This document shows positions 5,798 through 37,445 of a DNA stretch of 41,004 nucleotides, piece by piece (position 1 is the first letter of the stretch; each line of letters begins with the position of its first letter). The stretch is from NCBI GenBank assembly GCA_000934665.2, contig JYFJ02003480.1, forward strand, positions 1 to 41,004, written 5' to 3'. Below the pieces are notes generated by a model that had not been told where the DNA came from, made no database searches, and was given only the letters and a program-made list of their open reading frames with translations. Source of the DNA: Catajapyx aquilonaris (lineage: Eukaryota). Position numbers and translations under genes: made by a program.

Positions 5798-6186
5798 GTC
5801 TATAGGATTTTGGGAGTTGAAAGGGGCTTGACATGATCACTGTAGAGACCCGCATATTTTTGTCCAGTCCGCTTGTGATGAAAACAACCTTTGCATATAG
5901 TTGTATGTAGAGGATTGGAGGTCGGCAGGTGGCTTAAATCAAACCAAGGCAAAACTGCGTATAATATAAAACACGGATATGTTGACAGCAAGTTGAATCC
6001 CATGCCAGCAGTCAGATATGATACAACACATTATATCTGCTGCAGGTCAGAGTGAAGATTTGTGATAAATTGGCTCTAGAAATGATGGACCAATAGAAAG
6101 TGATCGTCCAATCAGATGATGCATGACCAGGTATAATTTGGCTACGTGACTTTCAGTGTATGGCCTAAACCTTACTCTGCAACAAT

Positions 6187-8282
6187 ATGGCAGACGATAT
6201 TTCCTTTTGGGAGGAGAAATGGGCCAAGAGTGAGGCTCATTGGCACATGTCCGACGTACATCCAATGCTGAAGCAGCACATCGAATCACTTCAGCAGGAT
6301 GGAAAGAAACCCATCAAGATTTTTTTCCCATGCTGTGGGAAAGCCGTCGACATGAAATGGTACGTTATACCTTCTCACAAAAAATGTCCTTTCTTGTCTC
6401 ATCCCGGATGTTGCGTCACTGACACCTGCTGCCAAAAATGACGCGAAATGCACGTGTTTTCTCTCAGCTGCGCCATTTACCGAGATGCGTGATGCAAAGG
6501 TTTGACAGAGTTATCTTGAGTTGCTCAGTTGGCAATTGCGTCGTTATAAAGAACAAAGATGTCATCTAGTGACGCATTTGTTTCTCATTCCAGGCTGTAT
6601 GACAATGGGCATTGTGTAGTCGGAGTGGATGTTATTGAAAAGCCATTGACCGATTTCATGTCTGAGAATGATCTCGAATATGAACAAGAGCTGTTGCCAA
6701 ATGGACAAGGGAATGTATTGAAAGTAGGTGCATTATACGAGATATTTGCGGGGGAAGGCGAAAGAATAGACGCAATAATGACTTCGAATGCATGGTTTGT
6801 TTAAATGTACTTAAGTAAGTACAATCGAATAAAGGCATTGTTGTGTCTTTTCTCTTGCCTTCCCCCTCTATCCAATGTCACTCCCTGCTTCCCGCCCTTA
6901 TGGACCTGCAGCTATTTGAAAATCTGCTCTCCTACCAACCACTCGAATGTGAAAGTAATAACAATGGTAAATGAGATATGTCCTGATTTTTTGCATATTT
7001 TTACCTGAACTTATTTGCAAACATGTTTACGTACAGGTGAGTGGCTCACCTTCATCTGAGTGGACCTTGTAATGTGCACTTCTACATGTAATGTACCGGT
7101 ATGCATCATGAACAGAATTTTTCACAGTGAGGCGGCCGAACGTACAAATAAGCCGCAGGTTTATATGCTCATTCCATAATAATATTCAATTAGGACTGAA
7201 AGTGTGGATTACCGTCATTAACTAGGTAAATATTGATATTGTAGCTGCAACTTATCTGTACCAAATAAGAACAATGTGTTGACAGCATATTCGCCAAAAG
7301 ATGGCCTTAAAATGCTTCCAGTTGCAATATTCCAGCCCTAGTTTTTAAAAACTTGCCAGACACCTTGGTGAATAAATAAGATATGCTACAGCACATGACT
7401 TATTAAATTTGCATTTAATTATAGAGTAGTGACTTACAAAAGCCTGTCTTAGCAAAGACCTTCACTCCACCCTGACGATTGCTGTGCTTTAATAACAAAT
7501 TACAACATTCATCATCATAAATTATTGCAGACAAAAGATGGAAGACTTCAACTCTACAACTGCGACCTGCTCAAGTTTGGTCCGGATTATTGCGGAAAAT
7601 TTGACTTGATATGGGACAGGGCTTCTCTGGTCGCCCTTCCTGTCGAAATCAGGAAACCGTAAGTTAGTTGGCTCTGCTATAAGGCAAATGTATATTGTTG
7701 TAATGTGTACAGTGCTCCAGGAGGCCTCTACATTATTGCGAGCACAATCACCTGGCAAAAGAAAACAGTAAGCTGCAACTCAGATTTGTTAAAGAATACT
7801 ATATTTTTTTGAGAAGGTACAGTAAATAACTATAGAATTGAATCTACGTATTTCGTGCTTTGCAGCTAATGTGCGTGTGCTAAAAGTCAGGACCGGTGTG
7901 TATCATGCATCAATATGCCTGTACTTATGGGTCAATATTTCAGATACGCCGATGCACTGATGAGTCTGATGAGTCCTACCTCCGAATACTTGGTGGTGGT
8001 GTTCGACTACGATCCACGTCTCCGTAAGGGACCTCCCAGATCTGTTCCCAGAAGCTCAATGGATCAGTTGTATGGTACGTATATGGTCCTTATGGAACGA
8101 TTGGCCGTCAGTCGTGTCAAATTGCAATAAAGCTATATGATTACGACATTACAGGTGGAGCATGTGACTTGAAGATGGTGCACGAAGCCGACAGCGAAGA
8201 GGAGTTCTCGCAACTGAATGTGCCAATCATTCCAGGTTGCATGACCCGAACGTATCTAATCACACTCAAATCTATGAATTAG
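6187..8282 (+). CDS. TPMT: Thiopurine S-methyltransferase (SAM-dependent), 229 aa, 5 exons
   Basis: Exons 6187-6359, 6594-6723, 7531-7658, 7944-8074, 8155-8282; all GT-AG with consistent phases; 690 nt. TPMT-family motifs: FWEEKW...WH..DVHPML, FFPCCGKAVDMKWL..GHCVVGVD, GKFDLIWDRASLVAL, YDP...GPP.SV. Confidence 0.95.
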
Positions 8283-9419: not shown

Positions 9420-11628
9420 TAGGGAGAAGAGATTAGTCTCGCTGTGTACTGTATTATTTTAAAGGCCTACATGAAATGATTTGTTCTCACATTATCGTGA
9501 TGTACTGATGTTGTAGAACATAGTCTGTTCCATCCCTTATTAGCGTTCCTGACTCCAGGTAGAGTAATATTATTTATCATGCACATTCAAGAATATACTT
9601 ACACGATGCTCCCGTTATCTTTTTGATATATGAGGCACGGCATTTTTTGGGGTCAGAAAAGAGAAAACAAAAGTACGAGAATGGAACGTGTCACATTTAC
9701 AAAACAAATCACATCCATTTTATCTGCCTTTGTGTAAAAAAAGTTCTCCTTGTAGCCTATACCGGTACTATCCTGTTGTCTAGGCAACCCGACTATCATG
9801 AAAGTTAGCTGAGTAATCTGATGGTGAGAGCATTATTAATGACCACAATGCATAATTGAAATATTTTTCCATGCATGTAACTTATAAGAATTGTAATGAC
9901 AATATTCTTTTTGGCATGTTCATATACAGTCAATAATTTCTAGAGCACATCTGATCATTCAAGGTTACACAATATGTGAAGACTTTTTTCTGCTTGGTTG
10001 ATAATAAAAAAGTCGGGACGTGATCCAGTCATTTTTTGTCTAAATTCCGGATGGCTGCGAGATTCATTCACTGCGGAGGGCGTTGATTACACAACTGTCG
10101 GCATGCAAAGTGAACTGGCGACTTTGAGTCACCTTACTACACGGTGCATTACTCTTACAATCTATACCTTCTAAGACCGTGCTCTATACTGTATAATCAG
10201 CCTGCGTATCTGCTGACTCTGTGTGCTTTTTTTTGCACAAGATTGAGAAGGGCGGTCCGGTAAATTCTCCATAGCTATCGTAAGTGCAAAACCAAAGACA
10301 AAGTCTGCTTATGATATGAAATGTACAAAATAAACTGTGATGAGATGTGATTTCCGCTACGATATAAGTGTGTTACAAAATGTTCATTCTCCTTCAGAAT
10401 TTCTACTGTGATGAAAAGCCAGTCCAGATGACAGCAATCGAATGATTAAACTGCAGTTCCGAAGAATTCCCTAATTTTCATTGTCGCTCATGCAACCTAC
10501 CAATATAATTTTCCAGATGTACTGTACTGTATAATTAGAGACAAATCTTATTCTTTAAAAAAAATCTGCACTCAGAGCCATCATATACTGTATATCAATA
10601 ATAATCGTTGTCATCAAGGGAATGTGTCATCTGACACGGAAATGCCGTGTATGATAGATAGTCGCTATATCATACTATATCATTATTTTCTAACGTATGA
10701 AAGGCGCCGACACGACCAATATGCAATAATTTCTATGATGATACTGCTCTCTTTTATTATGTAGATTTTTGCTCCTTTAGAAACCACTTGCCCCCATTGC
10801 AGCCAGAAAACCCTTTCTTGATTGCAAACTCATTTTTTGACCAAAATGTGACTCTACTCTGCATTCCAAGCCTTCAATTACTTTTCTCCCCCTTCTCTCA
10901 TTTTCCATTATGGAAAAGGGGTTTTATGGTATAGGAACAAAGAGGTGTAACCGGCCCCTAGGCAATAATCGGTGTTGATTTTCGTATCATTACCCAAGTG
11001 AATAACAGGAAACACGCTGCAGGTTGAGCCTCCATGCAACTATACCCGTCCTCGATTAGTAGTCAAACTGTAATTTATATGCATAGAAAAACAATTTAGC
11101 AAGCGATTATATGCGTAATGGATCCGAAATTGCAAACAACTACTATCTCGAGGGAAATTTTATTAGTGGAAATTATTGGCAATCACCCTTCAGGTAGGCC
11201 TAAACGCGAGAAGACACCTTTTGAAGCCCCCTGTGTGATGTTAAAGACTGTCATGGGGATTGAAGGCTCGAATATAACTTATCTCAGTTTACTTTGTATA
11301 AGTAGAGTAGTTCACCCATTATAATCCGTCTTGGATAAACGCAATGCAGCAACCTTCAAGCAGGAGGACAATGATTGATAATAATCTGAGCTTTTTTGCG
11401 CAACAAGTTTGAAAAGCCAAAAAATATTCCTCTAAACCCTGTTCATGTCAGGTATAAGTGATGCACTACCTAACATACCGATAGTCGGTCAATTGCTACA
11501 GTTAATATCTCTACGTTTCCTCAGTAGTTATATGCGCGAGAATTATTTTCTTGCAAAAAAAAAAAATTACAAATAATATCGGTCGCTCACTTTTATCACC
11601 GATAATGTAATCTATTCTTGAGGAGTGG

Positions 11629-11634
11629 TCAGTC
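11629..11634 (+). promoter_or_regulatory. Candidate initiator (TCAGTC) for the ANL-like gene
   Basis: Arthropod Inr-like TCAGTC about 30 nt upstream of the first in-frame ATG at 11663 (in-frame TAG at 11654). Short motif, could be chance. Confidence 0.3.
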
Positions 11635-11662
11635 GTTCTTGGGACGGGCCAGGTAGTACAAT

Positions 11663-14600
11663 ATGACAAATGAAGATGGTCAACTTTCATCAACTAGCAG
11701 ATTTGGAGGTGAATATTCAAATGCTATGTCTTCAAGCAAAGTGAGTTCAACCGGAGCATCATATGGAAAAGATGGAGAAGAGTAAGTGCTTTCTTCACCA
11801 GCAAGTATACTGTAGGATTATTGTCGAAGCACAATGCTGTTTCAGGGAAGTACCCATTTCGCCTGCAAAAAAACCGCAATATTTGAGGCTGCTATCCTCT
11901 CCGCACGAACAGTGTCTTCGAGCCGTACCAGAAATTTCAGTAGCTAATTTAATACTACAAGAAGTGGACTACGTTTTGGATCAGCATGGCGATAGGATAT
12001 GGGTGGTAAGCCTATGCATTCCCTTGAATACTGTATTTTATATAATTCTCCTTTTGAAGGGGTTGGCAGCAAAAAATTTATCTCCAAAAATTCGATTGCC
12101 ATAGTGTTTAAAATGTAATTAGACAATCAGTTGTAGAGTTTCCCAGTTAAAAATCAAGAGTTATCGACCTAAGTTTTTCTCGATTATCTCGGAAGTGTCA
12201 AAAATGGATGCAAATAAATTTTTCCGTCAATTGCTTTATTTACTGTAGAATATCTCGTATATCAGGTCAAATTAAGAGAAAATCTCCTATTATTCTGACT
12301 GTAGTTTTTCTGTATGTATCATAATGCTGATACTCTTATTTTCTGTACATTGGTAATTTCCAGACAGATGCATCAACGGGAGAGTCTGTGACCTATGAGA
12401 GAATAAATGAAATGTCCAAACGCGTGGCAAGTGCCTTAGCCAAGAAAGATTTCAGGAGCCAGAATGCAGTCATGTTCTGCTGCAAACACACTGCTTTCAT
12501 ATACCCTATTATGATAGGCGTTTGGCGTCATAATGGAATCGTCCGAACAATGAATCCAACATACGATGATGGTGGGTATTCCAAAATGTACCATGTCATC
12601 TGCTATAAAACTGGATTTGCCAGAAGTTGTTATTTACTAATTGAACACAAAATGACTCTCTTGTAGGCCTACTGATCGTATATAATCCATAAGCTTGATT
12701 TGAAATGATTAACAGTATGTGCTGTTAATCTTTAAAACCTGTTTTACAGACATGATACAGAAAGCTATAGAGGAAACACATACATCGATTATCTTGTGTG
12801 ACTTAGACGACGCTTCAAGATTTCTCAAGATGTCCCGATACGTCCCCTGGAAAATAGACGTTTTCGTTTTCGGAAGCGCTGATGGCTGTGGATCTGCATA
12901 TGGCTTGTTTTTCGACAACGGTCATGGTATAAAAAAATATCTATCATTTTACGTGTAACCATCAGCTATCACGGACCTATACATTACAATAACTTAGGTC
13001 TTAGGATATACTGTACCTTACAAAGGTTCCACAGATAAAGGACTTTTCTAATATTTTGTCAATTAAGATTTGATGCTCTTCATAGGGTTTCATCAAGGAG
13101 GTAACCACTTCGTGGAACCGGTGTACAGGGTCACTGTGGAGCCGTCTTGGAACCGGGTGGATCCATATGGAACCAGGTGGAACTGGGTGGATCCAACTTG
13201 GAACCTGTGGAACCACCTGGTTCCAGGAACCGATGTACACTTATTTGGGGAGTGGTTACCCCCTGGGGGGGGGGGGGGGTGTTTCATGGTAGTGCATGGA
13301 TCTCAGTAATTTATTTGCTTAATCACATGTAAAGAGATTGCTTAATTATTGACATATTCAAACACTTGGTAGACCACGCTTCAGTGATATGCATGTACTG
13401 ACAGATTGTCCCGACATAAGACCAAATGTAAGATCAGACACAGCCATCATATTCTGCGTAGGAAGACACGGAAATACATTACGACAAGTGGCCTACTCTC
13501 ATTTAGGATTGGCCAACTCCTTCATTCACATCAGGTAAGTCTTACCAAAAAATTTGCCCATCTGAAATCTAGTGTCAACATGTTACACCTAGAAGAGACG
13601 CATTGCCACAACAATTACCGCTGTCAGCATTTCCATCCCCTCTTTACATGATGGAGAGTGTCATCCAAGGATTTCTTCACCTAATGAGAGGTGAAACAAT
13701 GCTGACATTTTCAGAATTAAAGCGAGAAAACCTAGTGAGAGATCTGAAGAAGTATAAGGTACACGAATATTTTTGACATTAATTAATTGCGCTAATAACC
13801 TTTTTACAGCCGACCATCTTGATGGGCTATCCAACTTACTTAAGATGGCTGCTAGACGAGTCTGATGATGCCTTTCCTTCCATCAAGTATGTCAAGATTC
13901 TCGGACAGGGCCTTCGGAGTTATGAAAGTACAGCTTTGAAAAAAAGGCTTAATTCATTGACAACAGTATTCAAGGTATGACTGTCTTCTGGAGCAAATGA
14001 CTCTTTAAAACCTGTCATAATGTTATATAGGGCCTATAAAATCTTTCTTTGCGCAGTTGTATGGTTTTCCTGAGTGTTTCACTGCAATATCTTCCCTGGA
14101 CCAAGGCTCTGTTGGACAAGAAATGCAAGAATATCAAGGTCAGTTAAGCAACCTCATATTGCAAATTTATTGCTAGTCAAATACAGTGTTGCTGAACTCA
14201 TTAATGCATTTCGGGGATTATCAAATACTGCAGGGAGATACGTATTGTACAGAACCTGGATATCAAAATGCTGCAATGATGACATTGTCCTCTATTTGAC
14301 AAATGCCATGTACAATATCAGATTAAAATCCTTGCGGACTATGACCGAGACCTCTGATTAGTCCTCCGCTTATTGTTGCCACCACCGCTTCCGATTGGCC
14401 CACGTTCTACGCATGCGCAATGGGGTAGAGGAACCCCTCAGTAGTTTGCTGGAGGTCGACGAGTCAACACCCCATCTCCCGTGAACACCTCTACACTTCA
14501 TCCCTCTCCCATCCGCACGCGCCGTGTTCTAATCACAGTGACCTCACAACAGGGGAGCAGGAGCGGGGAGAGGGAGGGGGAGGGAGGTATGGAAATCCGT

Positions 14601-17473
14601 AAACAAACCGAACCTACTCTACGATCGGAATCTGTTGTTATCAGTGCAGTGGTGACATTTCCATGGCACTCAATAAGCGCTTTATAAATAAAGTAAAATA
14701 ATATTTCAGTTTTTTAAACGAGGTCCTTACTACAGCACCCCCGCGCCCCTGGCGGGAAGAGTTGGTACCGGTAAGCAGGATTGGGCCAGATTTTCAACAC
14801 CGCCGAACCCTGGGATAGGCCGAGTATGTCAAGAGAAAGGGTTGGGAAGAATGAAACCAGTTTTTTGAGCATCTAATACAAACACTGTAGAGTTCCATGG
14901 ACGTTTATAATAAAGGTACTATAATAAAGGGGAGTTATGAGCAGTCAGAAAACGTGGCCGGAAAGTGAGCTAATAGCTGCTGGTAGAGGTGATGAATTTC
15001 CGTTAATGCATTTATAATTTTGTTATCATTCAAAAGTTATCGGTATGTTGAGGTGGGCAAATGCATATGTCTCAGTCAAGGCAAAGGTCGGGTAAGTCTG
15101 GAGTGATTTAAAATAGTGTTCACTGCAGGCCGTAGGCCTAGAAAAACGCTAGTGGAGTGAGTGGTTTTCTACGCCTGCGCCATAGAAAAATCCCAGCGTA
15201 GCGAGGGTTTTTATAGTGCAAATTTTAATCTTATTGAGCTCTTCATTTACAGATATTCCATATGCAAGTTACGGGAAAGTAACACCCAGAATTAAGGCCA
15301 AGGTAAGCCTGCTGTAGATATTAATGCCCATCATTCATAATCACCAAAATATGGAATATGCACTTTATAGGTGGTGAGTATTGAAAATGGGGACATTTTG
15401 GGTCCTAACAAAGTTGGAGAACTGTGTCTTAGCGGATCGCCTCTCATGAAGGAATATTTTGGAGACACGGAAGTAGGTTTGCATATTTTATTTTTTAATA
15501 TGATCGACAATCTATGTGGCAAGGGATACCGGGACAATAGTCAATGCTATACTGCTATGGCCGATATAAACCAAGAATATTGTTAAAATACTGTTTAAAA
15601 TACCCGCATCAGTACAACCAGGGTCCCCTACATGGTTGCCTCCCCCACCCTAACCAGGGTATTGTCTTCACGTAGTCCTTATGCAATCTAGCTCCAATAT
15701 GGCCGCCCCATGCTGCAGGATAGGGAATTGGCAAGCGATTCGTTTTTGTTTTTTTCAATTGTTTTTTTTTCACTGCATGTAGCTCCTATGTGAATTAGCT
15801 CCAATATGGCGGAGAGACAATACCCTGTCTAGGTGGGGGAGGCACTCACGTAGGTGACCCTGAGTACAACTACTCGTATAGCAGTTCTTACTTCTTAGTA
15901 ATCAAAAATAGCAATAATCATTTTCATCTCACTTGCATCAACGTTGAATCAAGAAAGTTCGATGTGTTGTTATGGCACCAATAACAAATAATATTTATTG
16001 ATAAATACAGGATAGTGTCAACTCAACTTGGATTTCTTCTTCTCGGAGCTCATGTCATACGAGGAGCTCGAAAGCAAAAGCACAGCTAAGTCCATAATAA
16101 GAGATTTTACAGTAGAACTGAAAAACTATTTGTCATCTGGAAACGGTTGCAAACTGAAAGTAGATGATAGAGGGAATCGTGAGATGGCATTTTTTTGCAT
16201 TTTTAAATGTAAGTTTTGAAAATAGTGGATTGGTAGTCTAGCCACAAATTAGGGGGTCGGTTTGGATCTAGCTGGTTTTGCTTGGGAGCTCTTCTTATTC
16301 TCACAGCATACTGTATGCAGCATCACGTGCATACAACAGGTGCAGCGTCTTTTATATCACGTAATGGAGAATACAATAGTTCGCTTACAAAATTAAAACT
16401 TTACTGATATGCTGACATTATGGGCTACATGGATTATAGGAAAACATCTGACAGGTTCAATTAGTTAACATATTTTACTCAGAACATACAACATGCAGTC
16501 AATGGGCCCCAAACTAAATGATTACACCCCCTCCCCCACCCTCATGAGATAATTATGTGCACCTTCCTTAACATCATCATGCCAGGCATATGTTGCAACT
16601 GCGCCAATTATCATTAGCATATTGCCTGATTTGCAACACAATAATATGCCTGCACATTGCATTGGCACAAAAAATGAATGACATAGAAATGAGATGAGAC
16701 ATATGTCTGAAATTCGATATCAACAACTGGTCCCTGTGTGCTGTGTCCGTCCTCTGCTGTGTAATAAATTATAGGGCCCTGTAAATCCGTATTTTAAAGT
16801 AAGGCTTACATGTCGTAACACTGTTACAGAATGTTGAAGACCCTTTTCAAGAGGGCTGGTACCATACTGGTGACCTTTTTCATTTCGACGACGACGGTTT
16901 CCTGTTCTTTGACGGCGTCAAAAAGGACGCCATATACATCGCAAATCGATATGTAAGAGCTGTGTCTGAATAGCTTTGGAGGACTGAATAATTCAACAAC
17001 ATTATCATGACTGTGCAGGTGACTGGGGAACACATTGAGGAAATCCTTCTGAAACATCCGGCCATATCAGATGCTTGCGTCATTGCTGTCGACAGTCAAC
17101 TAAACGACGGAAAGTCTGTCCACCGAGCCTACGTCACCGTATGTGCTGAAGACGACTGGGTCTTGGGTGTCAAGTATATTAAATCATTTGTAGAAGGTAT
17201 GCACTTCGGAAATAATTGCAACCTACAGCATCCTTATTAATCATTTGCAACATAAATGCAGAAAGGGCAGGTGCAGCGTGCGACCTCTCAGGTGGAGTTA
17301 TCTTCATGGACACAATGCCCCTAACTACAGTTGGAAACCGCTCTAGAGAAACTATCAGAAACATGCGAGCATCTGGATACGACTTGAAAGTGCACCATAA
17401 AGTGTATGTATACACAAAAATAGTCACAAAGCGTCTACACACTAAACGCTGTAAGACCGCTGCAACTCACTGA
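11663..17473 (+). CDS. Firefly-luciferase / 4-coumarate-CoA-ligase-like ANL adenylating-enzyme homologue with degenerate catalytic motifs, 623 aa, 13 exons
   Basis: Exons 11663-11781, 11846-12005, 12364-12571, 12750-12926, 13405-13534, 13593-13758, 13810-13974, 14057-14138, 15253-15302, 15371-15472, 16830-16952, 17019-17196, 17262-17473; all GT-AG with consistent phases; 1872 nt, no internal stop. Family motifs: TDASTGESVTY, MNPTY, LYGFPE, LGPNKVGELCLSGSPLMKEY, GWYHTGDL.HFDDDGFLF, IEEILLKHPAISDACVI, LSGGVIFMDTMP. Confidence 0.9.
13097..13263. repeat. Small inverted-end element with internal GGAACC/GGATCC array (MITE-like)
   Basis: Ends ggaggtaaccactt (13097-13110) and gagtggttaccccc (13250-13263) are imperfect inverted repeats around repeated tggaacc(a/g)ggt / ggatcc units; followed by poly-G; in intron 4 of the ANL gene. 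Confidence 0.5.
15619..15862. mobile_element. MITE with 8-bp TSD (hAT- or P-type)
   Basis: ~50-bp imperfect TIRs CAGGGTC(C/A)CCTAC...GCCTCCCCCACC...CAGGGTATTGTCT; perfect TSD agtacaac at 15611-15618 and 15863-15870; in intron 10 of the ANL gene. Confidence 0.9.
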
Positions 17474-17582
17474 CATATATGAATTGTTTTACTAGTTATC
17501 AATACGCAGCTATAGGCGGCTGAAAATTTTCCACTAATGGGTTATCAGAGGCGCATAAGGGATCCTAGAACGAGAAAGCTTC

Positions 17583-18427
17583 TATTATTGATTCAACCCG
17601 GGAATAGTAGTAACGTCACAATGGGCAACAACGGCTGTTAACAATGGGCCGTATTCAGAGTCGTTCGCTAATGCAGCGCAAAAGTCCACACTAACTAGTG
17701 CGACGCTAGGTCCGCATTAGCGCCACACTAGTTGCTCCCATTCAGAGTCGCCTCACTGCCTGCTTAGAGGAGCGCACTAAGTTCGAACACTGCACTAGCG
17801 AGACGCGGTGTTGCCACGATTTCACAGGCAGGTTTTCGGACACCGTCTGTGCGATAAATGGGCTTTTAAATATTGATGCATGTCTTTTTCGATTTTAGTA
17901 CATTTTATAGACCTGAAAACACATTTTAGATGATTAAATAATTAGTAATGACGAATTTACGCAAAAAAAAATCGGAGCTGGGGTCGGCGGGTGACGATCT
18001 TCATTCGTGCTTCATTTAATCTTGATTTAATCCCCAGTGCGATGATATTCATTTGTTTCCCCAGGCTGGGGAAACAAATGAAGATTGAGAGCCAAAAATC
18101 GATTAGCAGCAGTTTAAAAAGCTGCTAAGTTATTTTCAAACTACCGCCACTGCCTAGTTCGATGTTAGTTCGACGCAAAAGAAGGGGGTCCCCTTCACTA
18201 AGTTTTGCCTTAGTGCACCGCTTTAGCAGGATCACACTAAGTCCGCACTAGGCCCGAACTAGGCCTAAAGCGCGACTCTGCATGCGACTTTTCTTAGTGA
18301 ACTGGGTCACGTGGTTTAAAGCACTGCACTAAACTCTTGTTGTTGAGAATATGGCCCAATGTCAATTATGAACATAGCAATTAAAGGCACGTGACGTCAC
18401 TACCATTATCTTATTGAATCAATAATA
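17583..18427. mobile_element. Outer MITE hosting a nested insertion
   Basis: Perfect 14-bp inverted termini tattattgattcaa / ttgaatcaataata, extending imperfectly to ~37 bp (aatagtagtaacgtcac / gtgacgtcactaccatt). Confidence 0.6.
17646..18357. mobile_element. PIF/Harbinger-like MITE
   Basis: TIR GGGCCGTATTC / GAATATGGCCC (10/11 match); 3-bp TSD AAT on both sides; many subterminal GCACTA/TAGTGC motifs. Confidence 0.75.
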
Positions 18428-19146
18428 ACAAACTAATGCTCAGTATTCAAGCCAAACAGTAAAATATATATTTTGTTTTCAACTGTGAAATGTTCAGGTA
18501 TTTACCATCATTATTTTATCCAGGGAGAAAATTTTAATGCTAATATTCGGTGTTACAAAAAAAATAGCCAAACAACGATTATTTCTTGGCAAGGTCATTT
18601 TGTGAGCAAGTGCTGTATACATGTCAAAGGAATAGGTATACATTTCTGTAATACCCAAATTGATTGCCAATAAGACAATACTCTTTCTCAGAACGTAAGG
18701 TCGAAGTATAAAATATTAATATCGTGGGGATTTCTCGCATTACTGGTTTACACAGTACCGCCGTACCGGTACCGGTACTTACAATGTACGAGGTGATATG
18801 CTTCCTAAGTTGGCACCTTCAAAACTTACGCGGCGTATTTTTAAAATGCATACTACATCCCACCGATAGATCCAGATGTGCACGCAATGAAATGCACATG
18901 ATGGTTGGAACAAGTTTTTATCTGCCTGATTGTAGGAGGTGTAAATGTAGGCAACACACTATCCCATATTCAAACACATGTTAGTGAAAATAGTGTAGTA
19001 CTACAGTACGCTGGACCTCTCTGACTTAGAGGTTCTTAAATATTTCTAACACAGATTGTGGTGATTTCGTTTCCATTATGGAGATAAGATAATATTAATT
19101 TTCGTTTCGTCGCGAAGAAAAATAGTACACAGTTACTAGAAAACTG

Positions 19147-23933: not shown

Positions 23934-26900
23934 ATGGGAGCAAAGGAAGAAAAAGAAGAAGAGTACGACCGTGGCCAATGGGGCTCTAAAGCGGAATTCC
24001 TCCTATCTTGCATTGGCTACTCGGTTGGAATCGGAAACATTTGGCGATTCCCATACCTGGCCTACGAGAATGGAGGAGGTAAGCCCATACAGTACATCCC
24101 AACCACAATTCACGCTCTTTCCCTCAAAAGTCCTCCCGTCCGAATAATCCAGGTAGTGCTTTAACATGGGATGAGACTATTATGTCAGGATATCCTAGAT
24201 GACCTTTGTACTTGTACTAAACATCCAGGTCCATGGGGGTGAGTTCCTCATGTGGTTAGTCTATTAGTGTCAAGAAATCCCACCCCAGACAAACCCAGAG
24301 GCTACCCAACTCCGAGCTTGCTGAAGAGGGAAAACCCAGGATCGAACCCAGGACCCTTCCATCCGTGACGTGACGCCATTCTGCCTCCCCTGCCCTGTCC
24401 AAATATTTAGCTTAGAATTGACGCGCGCACATTTACCAGTGTGTGCGAGTGTGGAGGGAGGTTGGCCATTGACTTGTTTGTTCAAACTTTGTGAACACTG
24501 CATGTGTCGGAACATCGAACATTAAAGAGGTCTGATAAGCTGCACTATCATTTTTCGGTGCTAAAAAGAGGTTGTAAATGGCTGGGATATGACTATCAGA
24601 ATGAAACCGTCAGTGACAGGTACGAGGCGGTACTTCATATTGCTTGCAAAATTATAGACGAGAGCCTTTACCGCAAAAAAAAAATTGCAGACCAAGGTGA
24701 TAATAAGCAGCTGAAAAAAAAACTGTAAGCTCCTTTGCAGACACGAAATATAAACGTAATTCAGAGAATAGAAAATTCCATGAATTCAGGTGTTTTTTTT
24801 TTTCATTTTTACAGTTACACAAGAAGCTATTTATAGGTTGCAGCTGTGAATAGCAGTGGGCTTTTTATCGTGTCTATAATATTCTACTAAACGATATTTG
24901 ATATTTTTAAAAAAATGCTTCGTACTTGCGTGTACTATGTCATAGCAGGGGTTATACGTGAAAACCTATAAAATTTGCACTTTTAAATATTTCCTCAAAA
25001 TCTGTATCAAAAGCTGGATTTCTCAGCTGAATTCAATAACTACTATAGCCTACATGTCACATTATGTAATAACGAGGCATGGTGAAACATGTGTCGTGAA
25101 ATTGGATCGCATCATTGATTTTAAAGCATACATGTAGGGTTTGACTAATGCTATTATCACAGTAGCATGTATGTTATACATGCTACTGTGATAATAGCAT
25201 TAGTCAAACCCTACATGTATGCTTTAAAATGAAGATGGAAAACCTGGCGTAACTAGAACAAATTTGTCTCATTGTTAACGGGCACGCTCAATTTCATCAA
25301 ATTTGGTCATACATACCCATCAAAGGAGCCGACAAGCTCACTGCACACATAACCTTCAAATTCCATTATTTCGTGTGTGCAGGATGGTGAGAATAATTCC
25401 CATATAAGTAGGCATTTATTACTGACTTTTTTCCCACACGGTCAAGTGCAAAGGCGCAAATTCCATGTTTGTTGTTAGCGACTTTGATACCTGATGACGA
25501 CAGGAATTTCTTAATACCGAATGGTATAGACTATTTCCGGACTATTTCTGGATATACTTCGTGTTGAAAGGGAATACCGAGAGATGAAAGCGCTATTTGG
25601 CAATTGCAATAGTATACAGTTGTGGCTTAATCTCCGATTATGCTGGGTAATGTATCTGAGAACCTGGCATAATCGGACATTTTCTCTCGTTAAATGTCAT
25701 AAATGGAAATTACCGGTAGAGAAAATCTCCGATGCAATGTATTACGAATATAATTTTATTGTTTAATTTTTCAGGAGCATTTCTGCTACCCTACATAATC
25801 CTGCTCCTTTTGGTGGGTAAGCCCATGTATTACATGGAGCTGGCTTTAGGTCAGTATTCCCAGCAGGGTCCACTCAACGTGTGGAAATTGTATCCAGCTG
25901 CTAAAGGTACAGTATCTTCACTACATTAACAACTAAGTTATGTAATCTAGTAGCCTGTTATGTAAACACGCAAAGGGAATAACGCGAATAGTTCCGGATG
26001 AAAAATATTACACAAAATAACACGAACGACACTGTTGAAAATGAATTCCGTTATTTAATCCACACTATTTTTTTTGCAGGTGTTGGATTTGCTATGTTGA
26101 CGGTGTCATTCATATGTGCAATATCGTACAACGTGCTAATGGCATACAGCGTATTTTTCATGGCTGCTTCATTCACGTCCGAGTTGCCATGGACAGCTTG
26201 CAGTGAATGGTGGGGAGCAGACGAAAATTGCTACATAAGAGACAACACCACTGTCAACCTTCCAGAATGTAACGACACAACGACATTCTCCACACCTGCG
26301 ACACCGATATTGTGTCTCAAGAAAGACAGAGAGACAGCTTCGCAACAATACTGGCAGTTCGTGAATTTTTCTATTCATAACTGATTGTTGTTGGCAATTT
26401 GTCATTGTAGTTTCTTATTATCAGGAAGTATGTCCTTGGATTTCGACAAGGTGGAATTGGTCCCCTTGGAGACATCGGTATTATCAAGTGGGACCTTGCA
26501 TTGTGTCTTCTGCTGGCCTGGATTATAGTCTTCTTGTGCCTCATGAAAGGAATCAAGAGTTCTGGAAAGGTAAGGCACATCCTGCTGTCTGTCATGGTGT
26601 GGTCATTGACTGCTCAACCAACAAATTTTTTGACCACCTGTTCATTCTAAAAATATAATAAACCTAAAATAATATAATGTAATTTTTAAATGCCTGTAAA
26701 ATAATTATCAGGGATGCCATTGGACATTTTTAAATGTAAGGCTGAAGGTGTCATGTGAATCATGTCCCATTCCCTCGGCATGCTTTTGGTGGTTTCTCGG
26801 GCTTATCATCACTTAAGAAATTCAAGCTCTTTGCCACATAATCACTTGGATTCTCAGAAACTTTTTATAGACCCTGTCTATTAAGAAGCTTGGACTATTT

Positions 26901-29900
26901 GTTTCAAATATTTCTTTGTATCCCTTTTCAGGTCGTGTACTTCACTGCCACGCTTCCCTACGTCGTCCTGTTAATTCTTCTCATTTTGGGACTGACTCTG
27001 GAAGGGGCTGGCACAGGACTCTATTATTTCTTTGTGCCTCAATTTGACAAGCTAGCTGACATAACGGTAAGTCCATAGCCACTCAACATGAAGTACACTA
27101 CAACGAATTGATCACCTTTGGAAAAATCTGGTGCAATGATCTTTTCATGTGCAGTAAAACATCCCTCAACAGGCAAGGTTGTAAAATGTTTTGTGTTTAC
27201 AGGTATGGCGTAATGCTGCCACCCAAATGTTCTACTCGTTAGGTATATCATGGGGAGGAACTATTATGTTTGCATCGTACAATCCTTTTCGCAACCGCGT
27301 CAATACAGACGCCATGATCATCTCCTTCATGGATACCTTTACCTCCATCATTGGCGGAATGGTCATCTTCAGCATCCTGGGAGCCATGGCCACTGAACTA
27401 CATGTGCCCATTGAAAAAGTTGTCGCAGGCGGTACGTAACCAGCTTGCATTAGGATTAAATTTGTCCCCAATTGAGCAGGTTGCCTACACTGAAATTGCC
27501 ACAATGCAACAAGCATTTAGGTGATTTCCTGATGACAGTTCATTATTAAATATACTCTATTTTATCTTTCAATTTCCTCTGGTTTAGTATGTCATATTAT
27601 AATATGACCACCCATCTTTATAAAGATGGGTGGTCCACATTTGCTTGTCGTATGTGTGGGCAAGGGGTTGTGGCCCAAAGTGTAAGTGTACTGCACAGAA
27701 CATGGGTTCAGGGGAGTTCAAAGGGTCATTCAGAAATTCCCCAATAAACCAGATCTGTCTTATGTAACTTATCCAGATTACTCTGACATGTGAATGACCC
27801 TTAAAGGGTGTGAAATCAGCAAGGCTTATTTTCTGCACGACCCATTTTATCTACTCAAGCCGCTCTAAGCATAATATGCATTTAGCCTTTCAGGTACAAA
27901 TATTGAATATATTCTTAAAGTGTGTAACATAAATGCATTAAAATACATTTATTTTAGGTCAAGGTCTGGCCTTCATAGTATATCCAGAGGCCCTCGCAAA
28001 GCTACCAGTCCCTCAACTGTGGACATTTATATTTTTTGCCATGCTTTTCTTTTTGGGATTGGATAGCGAGGTAAGATAAACCCACATGTTGTAGATGCAT
28101 GTTCAAGTTGCTTGTACAGTATGGTGCTATGACTGTCCTGCAGTCCTGCACATAACCTAATGACCAGCAAAAAGCATGTTACTTTTCAAAAGTTATGTGA
28201 TCAATTAAGTATTGCAATACTTAATTGATCACATAACCTTTGAATTTAATTACCTAAAAATTAATTAATTAATTAAACATTAATTTAATTAATTACCTAA
28301 AAAATAAATCATATGGTGTGAATTCTGAAGTGGCTGGAATTTGCGTAACATATAAATTGTTAATTCAGCTGGTGAACATTGTGTCTTTTGTGTTAACAGT
28401 ACACATGTCATTTGTGATCACCAACTTAGTCATGTATGCAGTATTTTCTGGGACCTTAAATTTAAGCAATATTATTAATTTTACTAAAAAATCCTTTTCA
28501 GTTTGCCCTGCTGGAAGCTGTTTTGACTGGTCTGTATGATGAATACCCTCGTACTCGCAAGTACAAGATCTTATTCACAGCAGCACTATGTGCATTCTGT
28601 TTCCTCATAGGCCTCCCATGTGTGTCAAATGTAAGTACAAGCACTATGACAATGTAATGATGCATTATTAATTCATTTTGCAACTCGCCTCCTGATGTAT
28701 AGTCTGGCGCATATGTTTTCCACCTGATGGACAACTTTGGTAGCAGTTTTGGAGTAACAATCATCGCCATTTGTGAGGTGGTGGCCATCATGTGGGGATA
28801 TGGCATGAGGAGATTCACCAAGGACATAGAATTCATGCTTGGAATCAAGGTGTCATGGTATTGGCAGATATGCTGGGTCTTCTTCTGCCCAGGGTTGCTC
28901 ATCGTAAGTATTATTCAAGCTGTTTTGGCAGCAGTGTCAATAGATGTACTGGAGGTCAACTGAATAATTGATAACTTGAATTGTTATTTTAAAGGATCCC
29001 TTCTATGGTGTACCACAATTATTTCTGTTGGAGGTCGTTCTTAATAATACTGTAGATGAAAAAGTGAAACTCCCTTTTGAAATAGCTTTCCTGAAGAATG
29101 GAAAATCTAGGGTTTAAAGTTGAGAATTTGCCATTTAAAAAAATTTGCAATGTCCAAAAAGCGCTAGGAACATGTCATAATTTTAATTTTTATGACTATT
29201 TGCAGATGATGGCCAATTTTTGTGTCGCATATTGTTCACCAACAATTTTAATGAAATTAAAACATGCTCAAGCAGGATTCTCCACCTAATGCCCTATTTC
29301 AGCTGTTGCCACTTCAACTAGCATTTATTTTATTAAAATAATATCAGTTTAAGTGAAAAATGTGTGCGTGCAACCTTAATAATTGGCCATCTACTATTGT
29401 CATAAATATTAAAATCAAAGTTTTGGCAGGTTTGTAGTGCCTTCCGTGGCCAAATGAAATGCAAAAAATTGCACATTTTAAATGATGAAGTCCAGATTTT
29501 AATTACTCAGAGAACAGGTATTTAAAAACTGGGTTTCACCTATTTATCAAATTAGGAACAACTTTCACCATAAAATCCACCCTGAAAGAGATCCTTTCGA
29601 ATTTTGTGTATAAATAGCATTAGAAAATCAAAACTAGCTAGTATTAATTCTCTCTTGAACCATACATCACAGGGGATATTCCTGACTTCAATCATATCAT
29701 GGGAGAACCCGCAGTTCGACAAATTCGAGTACCCAGGGTGGGCACTCGGTTTTGGCTGGTTCCTCACCGCTATTGCCTGTATCAACATTCCCATTTGGTT
29801 CGTCATTACAGTCGTCTATTACTGGAGAAAAGGGGTAAGCGGATCATTTTACAGGGTATCCACAATCAAACACAGCTGTAGTACTCTTAAAGTTGACACA

Positions 29901-30236
29901 GGGTTCACTCTAGTGCAGTATAGGCCTATATTATCCACCTATGATTAGACAGTGATTTTGATTATTTCTAACAATGACATGCAGCCTCAAATGAAAGAAA
30001 AGACAAAAGATGTCCTTGTTCAATTCCGATACTAATAAGCATGGTGATAACAATGAAAACATTTTTGGTGGGCTGTGCTAATTATTTATTTGAATTAGGA
30101 TGTGATGCAGGCTTTTCGACCCCTTCCATCATGGGGCCCTGGAGACAAAGCTGCTCAGCTGGAGCTTCTCCAGCGAGACAAGGAGGTTCCCATGGAAAAG
30201 GTGGGGCACGAAAATCCAATCGCCACTGTAGAGTGA
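23934..30236 (+). CDS. SLC6/NSS sodium-dependent amino-acid transporter (NAT / glycine-proline-transporter-like), 601 aa, 11 coding exons
   Basis: Exons 23934-24078, 25775-25906, 26080-26356, 26425-26569, 26932-27066, 27203-27431, 27958-28070, 28502-28630, 28703-28903, 29673-29834, 30099-30236; 1806 nt with consistent phases. Motifs: [96 protein letters not shown]. Confidence 0.96.
24200..24390 (-). mobile_element. Old diverged copy of the tRNA-derived SINE
   Basis: Minus strand reads ggggaggcagaatggcg...cggatggaagggtcctgggttcgatcctggg, colinear with the head of the 40329 SINE, including the B box. 3' boundary approximate. Confidence 0.65.
25118..25230. repeat. Perfect palindrome, 55-bp arms with 3-nt loop
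   Basis: 25118-25172 is the exact reverse complement of 25176-25230; loop gtt. Confidence 0.95.
28185..28244. repeat. Perfect loopless palindrome (23-bp arms, extending to 30 with one mismatch)
   Basis: gttatgtgatcaattaagtattg|caatacttaattgatcacataac at 28192-28237. Confidence 0.95.
28993..29595. mobile_element. Possible Kolobok-type MITE
   Basis: Left end TTAA|AGGATCCCTTCTATGGTG versus reverse complement of the right end AGGATCTCTTTCAGGGTG; right flank reads TTCG rather than TTAA; fills most of SLC6 coding intron 9. Confidence 0.4.
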
Positions 30237-32837: not shown

Positions 32838-33066
32838 CAGTGGTTTCCAACCTGGGAGTCGCGGGCAGGGTCGCGAGCCTGCAGTTAAATTTTTCTTTTT
32901 TGAAATTTTTGTGTAAATTGAACTATTTTTGCTGCCGTACAGAGTGTGTGTTTTCTGGAAATGGGTCAGTTGTAGAAGGGGCCAGGAGGGGGGGGGGGGG
33001 GGGNGGTTGCACATTTATGGACACATGTTTAGGGGGTCGCAGTTGGTAGAAGGTTGGAAACCACTG
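32838..33066 (+). mobile_element. hAT-type MITE, copy 2
   Basis: TIR CAGTGGTTTCCAACCT / AGGTTGGAAACCACTG; 8-bp TSD cgctagac at 32830-32837 and 33067-33074; internal poly-G contains the only N (33004). Confidence 0.93.
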
Positions 33067-34939: not shown

Positions 34940-37445
34940 TCACAGCTGATGAATAAATTTCTTCCCACTGTAGAAAATATCATTATGACACTCTACATCA
35001 ACCCTCCAGCGTTCTTTCCCCTTCTTTACAAGAATTTTGGATACATCATCCCCGAAGTTCCAGCTGTCAACTGCTCCAATTGTCTGCAGCTTTTGGCAAT
35101 TCAGCATTAGCATGTCTAATGTCTGTAATCCCAGAGAAGGGGCTTCCATCACAGAGAATACTTCTAACTCCATCAAACCCTTTCCACAAAATATATTTGC
35201 CATTTCAGAATCACCTAGTGAAGAAGTATGCCTCCAATACAGTTCCTTCAGTCCTGCAGCTGACTCCAACAGTGGGCACAAAACTCCGTCATCAATAATG
35301 TCGAATGAAATCAGATGTACTAGCGAGGGAAATGCAAGAGGTAATGTTGAAACCTTCTTTCGGACTTCGTACAACAGAAGAGATTCCAGTCCTGGGCAGG
35401 TTTTGGAAAGTCTAGATAAATCCAGGACACCAACCATATCCGAAATTTGCAGTCTCTGTAAAGGAAAGCCCAGTAATTACACACTAGAATATGAATCCCT
35501 GCCTTGATTTTATTCAGGGAAATACAGGGTCATCGAAAAAGAATGTCCCAATTTGAAAACTCTTTCACTCGAAAACTTGTAGACATATCTAAGTTTTGAA
35601 GTTTTGAAATGCTCAGAAGTGTCTAAGCACTCTAAGGTTTCGGCCTTACCATAATTTGTTTCGACATGAGCTCTGTTTGTCGCTCGAAAAATTAAAATAC
35701 GGTAATTGGTGTCTTGCCAAACCTGCTCATCAGTTTTGTGCCCACTGTTGGCGTTACCTTTGCAATCTTATCCCGTGTGTGCTGAAGATGCCCAATCTTT
35801 TCACCATGTACATGACTCCACAGAAAAGTCCATCGGGCTAAGATCTGGGCTTCTGGGTGGGCTAGGCATGGGGAAACTTCTCATTCAAAACTTCGCACAC
35901 TGGGTGGCTAAACAAATGAAACTTCTCTATAGCAGGTTTGTTTCATGGATGGGGCGACTTTTTATTTGAATCATCAAGAACAATGTGTGTGGTGTAAATA
36001 TCCGAGATATCCAGCACCTACGGGATAGGATTGATAGGGTTTGGCACAACACCGATTACCGCCTTTTTTATCTGCCGAGTGACACATGAAGATCATATTG
36101 AAACAAACTATAAGGTAAGACCAAAACTTTAGACCTTTCTTAGCATTTCAAAACTTAAATCATTCAGATATGTCTACAAGTTTCCGAGTCGTAGGGTTTT
36201 CAAATTGGGACATTCTTTTTCGATGACCTTGCATAATAACCAATCAGTTTAGTGTTTAAATAAAACTTGCTGAGTATTTACAAAATTTTCATGGTGGGTA
36301 ATTTTGAGCCTTTGAGAAGGCTTACATCAAGTGGGAGATTCCAATTTTCCCTCCATTATTATTATTATATGCATGCAGTGTACGAGGAAATGGAATAGGT
36401 GAATGTGACTTTTAATATGCATTGGAACTTTCAGTTTCAGCACTTAAAACATCCCTAACCATAGTTCTCCAAACTGAAAAACATTTACAAATGGCTTGTC
36501 ATAATGCAAGTAATGTATTTGTGCACAGAGTGTAATGGTGTCTAACTGCAAGTGGCAATGTGGCAATCAGAGCAATTGCATTTAAAATTGTGCCCTTGCA
36601 GTGAAATCCTGGAAAATTTCAGGCAGGTAGCCAGTACAAATCCTATCTTTCGATTTTCGAAAATGATGCCACACTCTGATGACAGGCTCAAGATTTGGGG
36701 GGTGGGGGGGGGGAGGAGGGAAAGGAGGAGTAGGAGAGAGAGAGAGGGGAGGGAGGAGGAGGAGAGTACACAGCATGCAGGCAACATTGCCTTTCACTTC
36801 TGGGCAAAAAGTTCTTTGCTACAGTTATGTCTTCACAAAAAAAGCATCATTTTCAATTTCCTGTATATAAAATTTCCACACAGCAGTTCCCCGAGGCTTA
36901 AAGCCGCAAATGTTAATTGGCCCTACATTTAATTCACAATTTGGTACCAAGCAGGGATCTTGCACCATGCTGGCAAAGAACAGTCTGGAACAAGCAGAAA
37001 ACCTATTGTAACATCTTTGAACTACTGGATAACAGCTGTATGCCAATAGTGCCCTGGAAAGCATCTTTGAAGATGCAAGTGGTGGGTGGTCATAGTTTTA
37101 GTGTAAATATTTTCTGACTTCTCCAGCCTCTTCTTTACGTACAATGCTATAAACAAGAACTCAAACAAGTTAAATATTGTCAATCCTGAGAAAAAATAAT
37201 GCCTTTACCTTCAGGTTGTGTCCAACTTTTCCCAGTATAGCAGACAGCATATTCCACCTGGTGCCAATCAGCACCAGAGTAGACAGGTTCCTCAGAAGAC
37301 CCATTCTTGCAGATGCAGAACTGTGTATATGGTACAAGGCAATGTGATTCAAGTTGGGGCAAAAGGATGCCAGCATCTCCAGCTGCTTTCCACTAGTTTC
37401 CATGCCGCTGATCCTCGTCAATGACAATTCCTTGGCCTTGATCAT
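34940..37445 (-). CDS. Leucine-rich-repeat (F-box/RNI-like) protein, last two exons, 5' partial
   Basis: Exons 37445-37209 (preceded by acceptor ttctag, donor AAG|gtaaag) and 35455-34940 (acceptor tttacag, TGA) join in phase 0. Repeats LASFCPNLNHIAL, LRNLSTLVL, LSKTCPGLESLLL, FPSLVHL, LMLNCQKLQTIGAVDSW. Confidence 0.8.
35525..36231 (-). mobile_element. Non-autonomous Tc1/mariner deletion derivative, copy 2
   Basis: TA|CAGGGTCATCGAAAAAGAATGTCCCAATTTGAAAAC...TTTTCAAATTGGGACATTCTTTTTCGATGACCTTG|CA; imperfect TIRs over 100 bp; minus strand encodes PPRSPDLSPMDF; lies in the last LRR intron. Confidence 0.9.
36698..36765. repeat. Purine-rich low-complexity tract (G/GA/GGA)
   Basis: Poly-G followed by (GA)n and (GGA)n. 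Confidence 0.85.

Follow-up and report, generated by a model that had tools for sequence, protein, structure and literature searches.

An intact, highly diverged ANL-superfamily gene of Catajapyx aquilonaris as a candidate pseudoenzyme

The window analysed here is a stretch of 41,004 nucleotides from Catajapyx aquilonaris (GenBank assembly GCA_000934665.2, contig JYFJ02003480.1), in which a gene of 13 exons occupies positions 11663-17473 of the forward strand. Its predicted product of 623 amino acids belongs to the ANL superfamily, whose acyl-CoA ligases, non-ribosomal peptide synthetase (NRPS) adenylation domains and luciferases are among the best-studied enzymes, and it carries degenerate residues at the phosphate loop and at the lysine of motif A10. 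The original prediction, made from the letters of the sequence, had described an intact gene deprived of its catalytic machinery and had proposed selection for a non-catalytic role. We rebuilt the gene model, collected relatives of the product, examined the conserved motifs position by position and compared the state of the gene with a simulation of neutral decay.

Gene structure and reading frame

The model was rebuilt from the letters of the window by translation in the three forward frames, and the predicted architecture of 13 exons with canonical splice sites and an uninterrupted frame was reproduced in full. All introns (12/12) have GT..AG borders, the coding sequence of 1872 nt yields 623 amino acids and a stop codon, and another in-frame stop is located immediately 5' of the ATG. 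The 624 codons contain the terminal stop only; the two alternative frames of this coding sequence have 43 and 34 stops per 623 codons, and the introns 68-75 stops per ~1312 codons. The open frame far exceeds chance expectation. In a MAFFT alignment of the spliced product with 14 relatives there was no exon-sized gap, and homology therefore backs the 13-exon model. The gene does not contain a single N.

Exon 1 (11663-11781, residues 1-40) starts with the ATG and encodes a Ser/Gly-rich N-terminal extension that is unaligned and has no counterpart among the relatives; the start of the product is devoid of signal-peptide-like character. The colinear match to relatives begins at residues 57-87, within exon 2 (11846-12005, residues 40-93). 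Exons 7 (13810-13974, residues 321-375) and 9 (15253-15302, residues 403-419) were placed by the gene model and the alignment, and the product ends with a basic C-terminal tail encoded by the last exon.

Two features of the introns should be mentioned. A run of 15 G at 13265-13279 in intron 4, outside the exons, may reflect assembly or polishing trouble. In intron 10, the segment 15619-15862 contains two overlapping inverted-repeat pairs with arms of 25-31 nt that are 84-87% complementary and ~150-180 nt apart, which looks like a small foldback or an insertion resembling a miniature inverted-repeat transposable element (MITE).

Homology and the state of conserved motifs

The assignment of the product to luciferase and 4-coumarate-CoA ligase (4CL)-like proteins was upheld by Pfam matches of two exons, by colinear full-length matches to relatives and by the match of the best relative to solved structures. 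Whole-protein comparisons of the spliced product were done with local scripts, while single exons were used for remote searches. The Pfam scan covered 11 of the 13 exon peptides (exons 1 and 9 were left out). Both domains of the superfamily were recognised above their cut-offs: PF00501 in exon 3 (12364-12571, residues 94-163; E=1.8e-8, 34.1 bits, cut-off 29.9), where the N-terminal ANL domain starts, and PF13193 in exon 12 (17019-17196, residues 495-554; E=2.7e-5, 25.4 bits, cut-off 24.5), where the C-terminal domain starts. Exon 10 (15371-15472, residues 420-453) matched PF00501 positions 358-384 under the cut-off (E=0.0062, 15.8 bits), and the other eight peptides scanned gave no ANL match. 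Against solved structures, exon 11 (16830-16952, residues 454-494) matched 79 ANL chains at E<=10 through its A7 region, the best being 3ivr (E=9.3e-6), with Val opposite the hinge Arg; exon 3 produced weak matches only (best E=0.063), and exons 5 and 13 had 0 matches at E<=10.

The search with exon 3 against 1.84 billion representatives returned 49 matches at E<=0.001. Most of these were long proteins aligned in several stretches, many of them apparently multi-module synthetases, and two (P0030 and P0032) turned out on reading to be unrelated repeat proteins. Seven were short open reading frames of 74-158 amino acids with 26-43% identity, one from Ephemera danica and the others from metagenome assemblies, which look like the counterpart of exon 3 in other animals. 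They have an invariant W-R..G (GVWRxxG) in common with exon 3, where it reads GVWRHNG (12517-12537), and several of them end exactly at the end point of exon 3; these coincident ends point to a shared intron position. It should be added that GVWRxxG alone is not diagnostic, because the bacterial A-domain-like protein P0068 carries GIWRAGC.

A profile of the eight sequences (exon 3 and the seven open reading frames) retrieved 21 longer proteins from springtails (Orchesella, Allacma), mayflies (Cloeon, Ephemera), horseshoe crab and slug, together with two metatranscriptome-like JGI records, and a coral relative was added through a cluster look-up. The named relatives are labelled '4-coumarate--CoA ligase-like' or 'luciferin 4-monooxygenase-like'. 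The spliced product matched P0055 of Orchesella dallaii (543 aa) in one domain, residues 87-580 to target positions 42-533, with 214 bits; P0056, P0058 and P0054 followed with 194-208 bits in one colinear domain, and canonical 4CL-like proteins scored 109-133 bits. The matches to nine relatives consisted of one domain each, covering approximately residues 57-592 and nearly the full length of the target, with E from 1e-65 to 1e-31. Exon 4 (12750-12926, residues 163-222) had its top tblastn match in P0058 (E=4.5e-6). Among solved structures, P0055 itself was closest to the 4-coumarate-CoA ligase 3a9u (E=2.6e-64), to which it aligned motif for motif, with beetle luciferases next (~1e-53 to 1e-60).

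A quick maximum-likelihood tree was calculated for the model and 18 relatives, leaving out P0050 (fused), P0059 (NRPS), P0067 (garbled) and P0001-P0049. The model came out next to the springtail clade, with a Shimodaira-Hasegawa-like approximate likelihood ratio test (SH-aLRT) value of 92 (not starred) and an end branch of 1.88 changes per column, the median being 0.34 (~5.5x). These comparisons put the predicted product, very diverged as it is, in the 4CL/luciferase-like branch of the ANL superfamily, and its nearest relatives are an uncharacterised arthropod GVWRxxG subgroup of springtails and mayflies. This subgroup includes O. dallaii CAL8086990.1 (P0055), Orchesella cincta ODM96288.1 ('4-coumarate--CoA ligase-like 2'), Allacma fusca CAG7728489.1 (P0056) and 'luciferin 4-monooxygenase-like' proteins of Cloeon dipterum and E. 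danica. The window protein resembles it in its best full-length matches (194-214 bits), the GVWRxxG motif, an Asn in the A8 segment and its neighbours in the tree. All members of the subgroup, however, have retained TSG(T/S)TGxxKG as well as the Lys of A10, and GYGMTE is likewise present in the springtail clade and in one Ephemera protein, whereas the window protein is 23-25% identical to them, has the ~5.5-fold longer branch and bears extra N- and C-terminal tails.

With 4CLs and beetle luciferases (3a9u, 5bsm, 1ba3/1lci, 6k4c; PF00501 and PF13193) the product shares the superfamily and the two-domain layout; unlike them, it has no phosphate loop and has lost the Thr of A5, the Arg of A8 and the Lys of A10. 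Its similarity does not single out luciferases, since 4CL and fatty-acyl-CoA ligases reach scores as high or higher; neither a specific relatedness to beetle-type luciferases nor their catalytic lysines were found, with Lys missing both at A10 and at position K489 of A8.

A further observation concerns three Cloeon dipterum records among the relatives (P0050, P0076 and P0079; 1213-1577 aa), in which two or three ANL units stand in a row with loop and A7 motifs repeated. Either annotation has fused tandem genes or the proteins truly consist of several units; the same cluster also contains RefSeq models with one unit, of ~540 aa.

To describe the conserved motifs, we called a column of the alignment near-invariant when no more than one of 12 relatives deviated, P0067 and P0068 being excluded from the count. 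Among 52 such columns the window protein keeps 28 and changes 24. All motifs and positions quoted in the original prediction proved correct on re-translation, and its motif assignments agreed with the alignment, as did the losses it had listed with the near-invariant column count.

The most extensive change affects the A3 phosphate loop in exon 5 (13405-13534, residues 222-265). The region 13440-13502 translates as TAIIFCVGRHGNTLRQVAYSH, in which VGRHGNTLRQ (13458-13487) takes the place of TSGTTGxSKG or SSGTTGLPKG of the relatives and 0/7 near-invariant residues are kept. By pattern match, all 37 relatives (P0050-P0086) have a canonical loop. A compensated frameshift as the source of the altered loop was ruled out, the canonical loop peptide being present in no frame. 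Exon 6 (13593-13758, residues 265-320) reads PLYMMES at the A4 position (13639-13659). At the A5 position in exon 8 (14057-14138, residues 376-403) YGFPE (14060-14074) replaces GYGMTE; Gly and Glu are kept, and the Thr found in 12/12 relatives is changed to Pro (T380P). The A8 segment DGVKKDAIYIANRYV (16911-17021) spans intron 11, starting in exon 11 with DGVKKD, and reads DGVKKD..Y against DRxKExxK in relatives; Arg and the second Lys are lost (R483V, K489Y) and K485 is kept. In exon 13 (17262-17473, residues 554-623 and stop) the A10 position is PLTTVGNRSR (17318-17347), with GNRSR opposite GK(I/V)xR, and the codon AAC at 17336-17338 encodes Asn where Lys stands in 11/12 relatives (K579N). 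A further near-invariant loss is K560C.

The claim that structural motifs and the A7 TGD were kept stood in part. The A6-type VGELCLSG in exon 10 (15413-15436) retains the Gly-Glu of GEL..G, exon 11 retains A7 as GWYHTGD (16854-16874; GW..TGD), and several residues of the C-terminal domain are unchanged, among them P573, G578 and R582 near A10; several structural glycines, on the other hand, are gone. We also split the near-invariant columns by function, using labels for what we take to be catalytic or ligand-contact positions (the seven loop residues, T380, E381, D468, R483, K489 and K579). The window protein keeps 2/13 of these and 26/39 of the others (Fisher p=0.003), a difference to be read with the split made post hoc.

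The strict A10 pattern was matched by 22 of the 37 relatives. Among those that missed it, the coral cluster of P0062 was inspected: Stylophora pistillata XP_022787178.1 and Logan transcripts (P0062, P0084-P0086) keep the loop as SSGTGGLPKG, have Glu instead of the A10 Lys and possess a long C-terminal tail. With the loop present and the A10 Lys missing, this cluster indicates that partial loss of ANL catalytic residues occurs in other invertebrates.

Divergence, decay and possible function

Neutral decay was simulated in 1000 copies per level with substitutions only, indels being ignored. Of random substitutions in the coding sequence, 4.25% create a stop. The frame together with the 48 splice-site bases stayed intact in 25.8% of copies at 0.01 substitutions per base, 6.0% at 0.02, 0.8% at 0.04 and 0.0% at 0.08. 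At 0.04 substitutions per base 8.6% of residues were altered, compared with 75-81% of aligned positions at which the real protein differs from each relative. Long neutral decay of the gene is excluded. The intact frame and splice sites, the simulation and this divergence taken together imply that most of the divergence arose while the frame was preserved, and we infer from this single sequence that its bulk, including the catalytic losses in exons 5, 8, 11 and 13, came under frame preservation.

It is an established fact of ANL enzymology that the phosphate loop and the A10 Lys are needed for adenylation. With neither of them the predicted protein would form no acyl-adenylate and would be catalytically dead as a ligase or luciferase. 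We consider a maintained ANL pseudoenzyme with a binding or scaffold role to be the best explanation, at a probability of roughly 0.55: an ANL homologue would have diverged under selection for its translated product, as suggested by its intact frame and splice sites and its very long branch. Speculatively, the product could serve in the cytosol as a scaffold or binding protein, a carboxylate or acyl-type ligand might be held in what remains of the pocket between the two domains, or the protein might partner an active paralogue. The fuller version, in which an expressed, selection-maintained ANL-fold protein has abandoned adenylation and been recruited to ligand holding, scaffolding or a bulk structural job, is more tentative, and we rate it at somewhat less than an even chance.

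The proposal that catalytic residues were lost in a targeted manner was overstated. Catalytic positions were lost preferentially, but 24/52 columns are changed in a protein of 19-25% identity on a ~5.5-fold longer branch. Per-exon identity does not set catalytic exons cleanly apart, because exons 6-7 are also poorly conserved family-wide. The pattern seen in the alignment is one of general fast divergence with catalytic positions worst affected, and no clean excision of an active site. Likewise, the contrast drawn by the original prediction between selection for a non-catalytic role and pseudogene decay held as far as long neutral decay is irreconcilable with the data; the role itself is deduced from one sequence.

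Several observations weigh against a maintained pseudoenzyme. The breadth of loss among near-invariant columns extends to glycines outside the catalytic motifs; a third of the non-catalytic positions are lost, including glycines 122, 126, 150, 286, 447 and 470. Given such broad loss, a stable ANL fold of the predicted protein is not certain. Exons 5-8 have the lowest identity, 13-20% to the nearest relatives (exon 6, 13% to the four nearest), and identity to every relative is within 19-25%. The placement beside the springtail clade is unsure because the end branch of the model is very long. No orthologue came from the exon, profile and metagenome searches, and the degenerate state is seen in one species. 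The binding or scaffold role is speculative and has no direct support. Furthermore, the frame alone was still open in 42% of simulated copies at 0.01 substitutions per base, AATAAA does not occur within 1.5 kb 3' of the stop (ATTAAA is found there at 17933 and 18380), and very recent gene death is possible.

This last scenario assumes long functional divergence of a gene that is now unexpressed or freshly pseudogenised, too recently for a stop, frameshift or splice-site loss to have appeared. It is consistent with the simulation at 0.01 substitutions per base, where 42% of copies kept the frame and 26% kept the splice sites as well, with the missing AATAAA and with the absence of a close relative among the 1.84 billion representatives searched with exon 3. 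Nothing in the gene is broken, however: all introns retain GT..AG, start and stop codons are present, and relatives align colinearly without an exon-sized gap; we regard recent death as unlikely, though it is the strongest of the alternatives. The product could instead still be an enzyme in which an ANL fold with non-canonical residues performs adenylation or another reaction, for instance with Arg248 substituting for the Lys of the loop and with other basic residues near A10. The kept A7 Asp, A5 Glu, A6 motif and Lys485 of the hinge region speak in its favour, as do the conservative Lys to Arg change in the loop, the retained Arg582 after A10 and the coral cluster, which also lives without the A10 Lys and retains the loop. 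Yet the window protein has lost the entire loop at the same time as the Thr of A5, the Arg of A8 and the Lys of A10, the loop is kept in 37/37 relatives, and adenylation requires both loop and A10 Lys; continued catalysis is accordingly given little credence.

An artefact of the model, by which other exons or splice sites or a misassembly would conceal a real product with normal motifs, appears very improbable. The G run in intron 4 could signal local assembly trouble, but the degenerate motifs are inside exons, flanked in frame by residues aligning with relatives, and the gene is free of N. The original prediction had foreseen alternative exons with canonical motifs as evidence to the contrary; when looked for in the DNA, none was detected in 10500-18500. 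There, tblastn of 15 relatives gave noise only outside the model exons (E>=2.6), and five canonical motif patterns had 0 matches in six frames. No second ANL gene or paralogue is present within the window.

Searches for orthologues were equally negative. Word-index searches of longer proteins with exon 3 and exon 11 gave no scored match, and none of the 49 exon 3 matches was of orthologue grade, single-stretch identity being at most 43%. P0012, listed at 51% identity, was rejected as a 14-residue stretch in a repeat protein. The sole locus from a JGI metagenome scan with exon 12 (L001) matched over 17 residues, resembled no other part of the model and was discarded as spurious.

A fragment of 78 aa from an ENA metagenome assembly (P0017) deserves mention in its own right. 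It resembles exon 3 with 41-42% identity and has several unusual residues in common with it. Both, for example, have Asp at near-invariant Gly122, lack Asp127 and Gly150 and contain the CC and NP pairs, whereas other relatives keep RG(F/L/M) and KGD. The fragment may represent this diverged lineage in a second organism.

Pseudoenzymes and enzyme-derived lens crystallins are known to retain a fold after loss of catalytic residues, the gene remaining intact. The window gene is similar to them in its kept fold-type motifs, lost catalytic residues and intact structure. In the literature search, 'pseudoenzyme' and 'ANL superfamily' were not found together in any paper, and among the matches listed no title or opening of an abstract described a non-catalytic ANL member. 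Photophore crystals of the firefly squid Watasenia are reported to consist of proteins of the ANL superfamily and to remain active in an ATP-dependent light reaction (PMC4899746). As far as that description goes, they parallel a possible structural use of the window protein in showing an animal ANL fold in bulk crystalline service and roles beyond soluble metabolism. The likeness is one of description and not of sequence; the squid proteins are still catalytic, whereas the window protein is devoid of ATP-handling motifs.

If the gene is indeed a maintained dead copy, it would be the first animal ANL-superfamily pseudoenzyme described. It would imply that the two-domain ANL fold is reusable for binding or scaffolding, and would offer a natural variant with all catalytic motifs removed for probing the fold without its chemistry. 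Relatives may then exist in other invertebrates, as hinted by the derived residues shared with P0017. Automatic annotation would name such a protein '4-coumarate-CoA ligase-like' or 'luciferin 4-monooxygenase-like', and the organism would be wrongly credited with the enzyme. The significance is limited because one gene in one genome is concerned.

Neighbouring genes and other features of the window

Upstream of the ANL gene, an exon-like open reading frame at 6169-6441 on the forward strand matches thiopurine S-methyltransferase (TPMT; PF05724, E=8.4e-14, profile positions 4-56) and probably opens the coding sequence of a TPMT-like gene. Downstream, two exon-like open reading frames of the same strand, at 25992-26384 and 29586-29948, match the sodium:neurotransmitter symporter family PF00209 (E=5.4e-14, profile positions 79-144, and E=4.2e-6, profile positions 474-522, respectively) and point to an SLC6-type transporter gene. 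A functional link of the ANL gene to these neighbours was considered and rejected, as nothing connects them.

On the reverse strand, two stop-free stretches at 34940-35476 and 37170-37445 (178 and 91 aa) are rich in leucine and look repeat-like. They gave 0 Pfam matches at E<=0.01 and may be exons of an unrecognised gene. Finally, the segment 32988-33004, outside the exons of the ANL gene, holds a homopolymer of 16 (G or C) and, directly after it at 33004, the single N of the window, and may be another site of assembly or polishing trouble.

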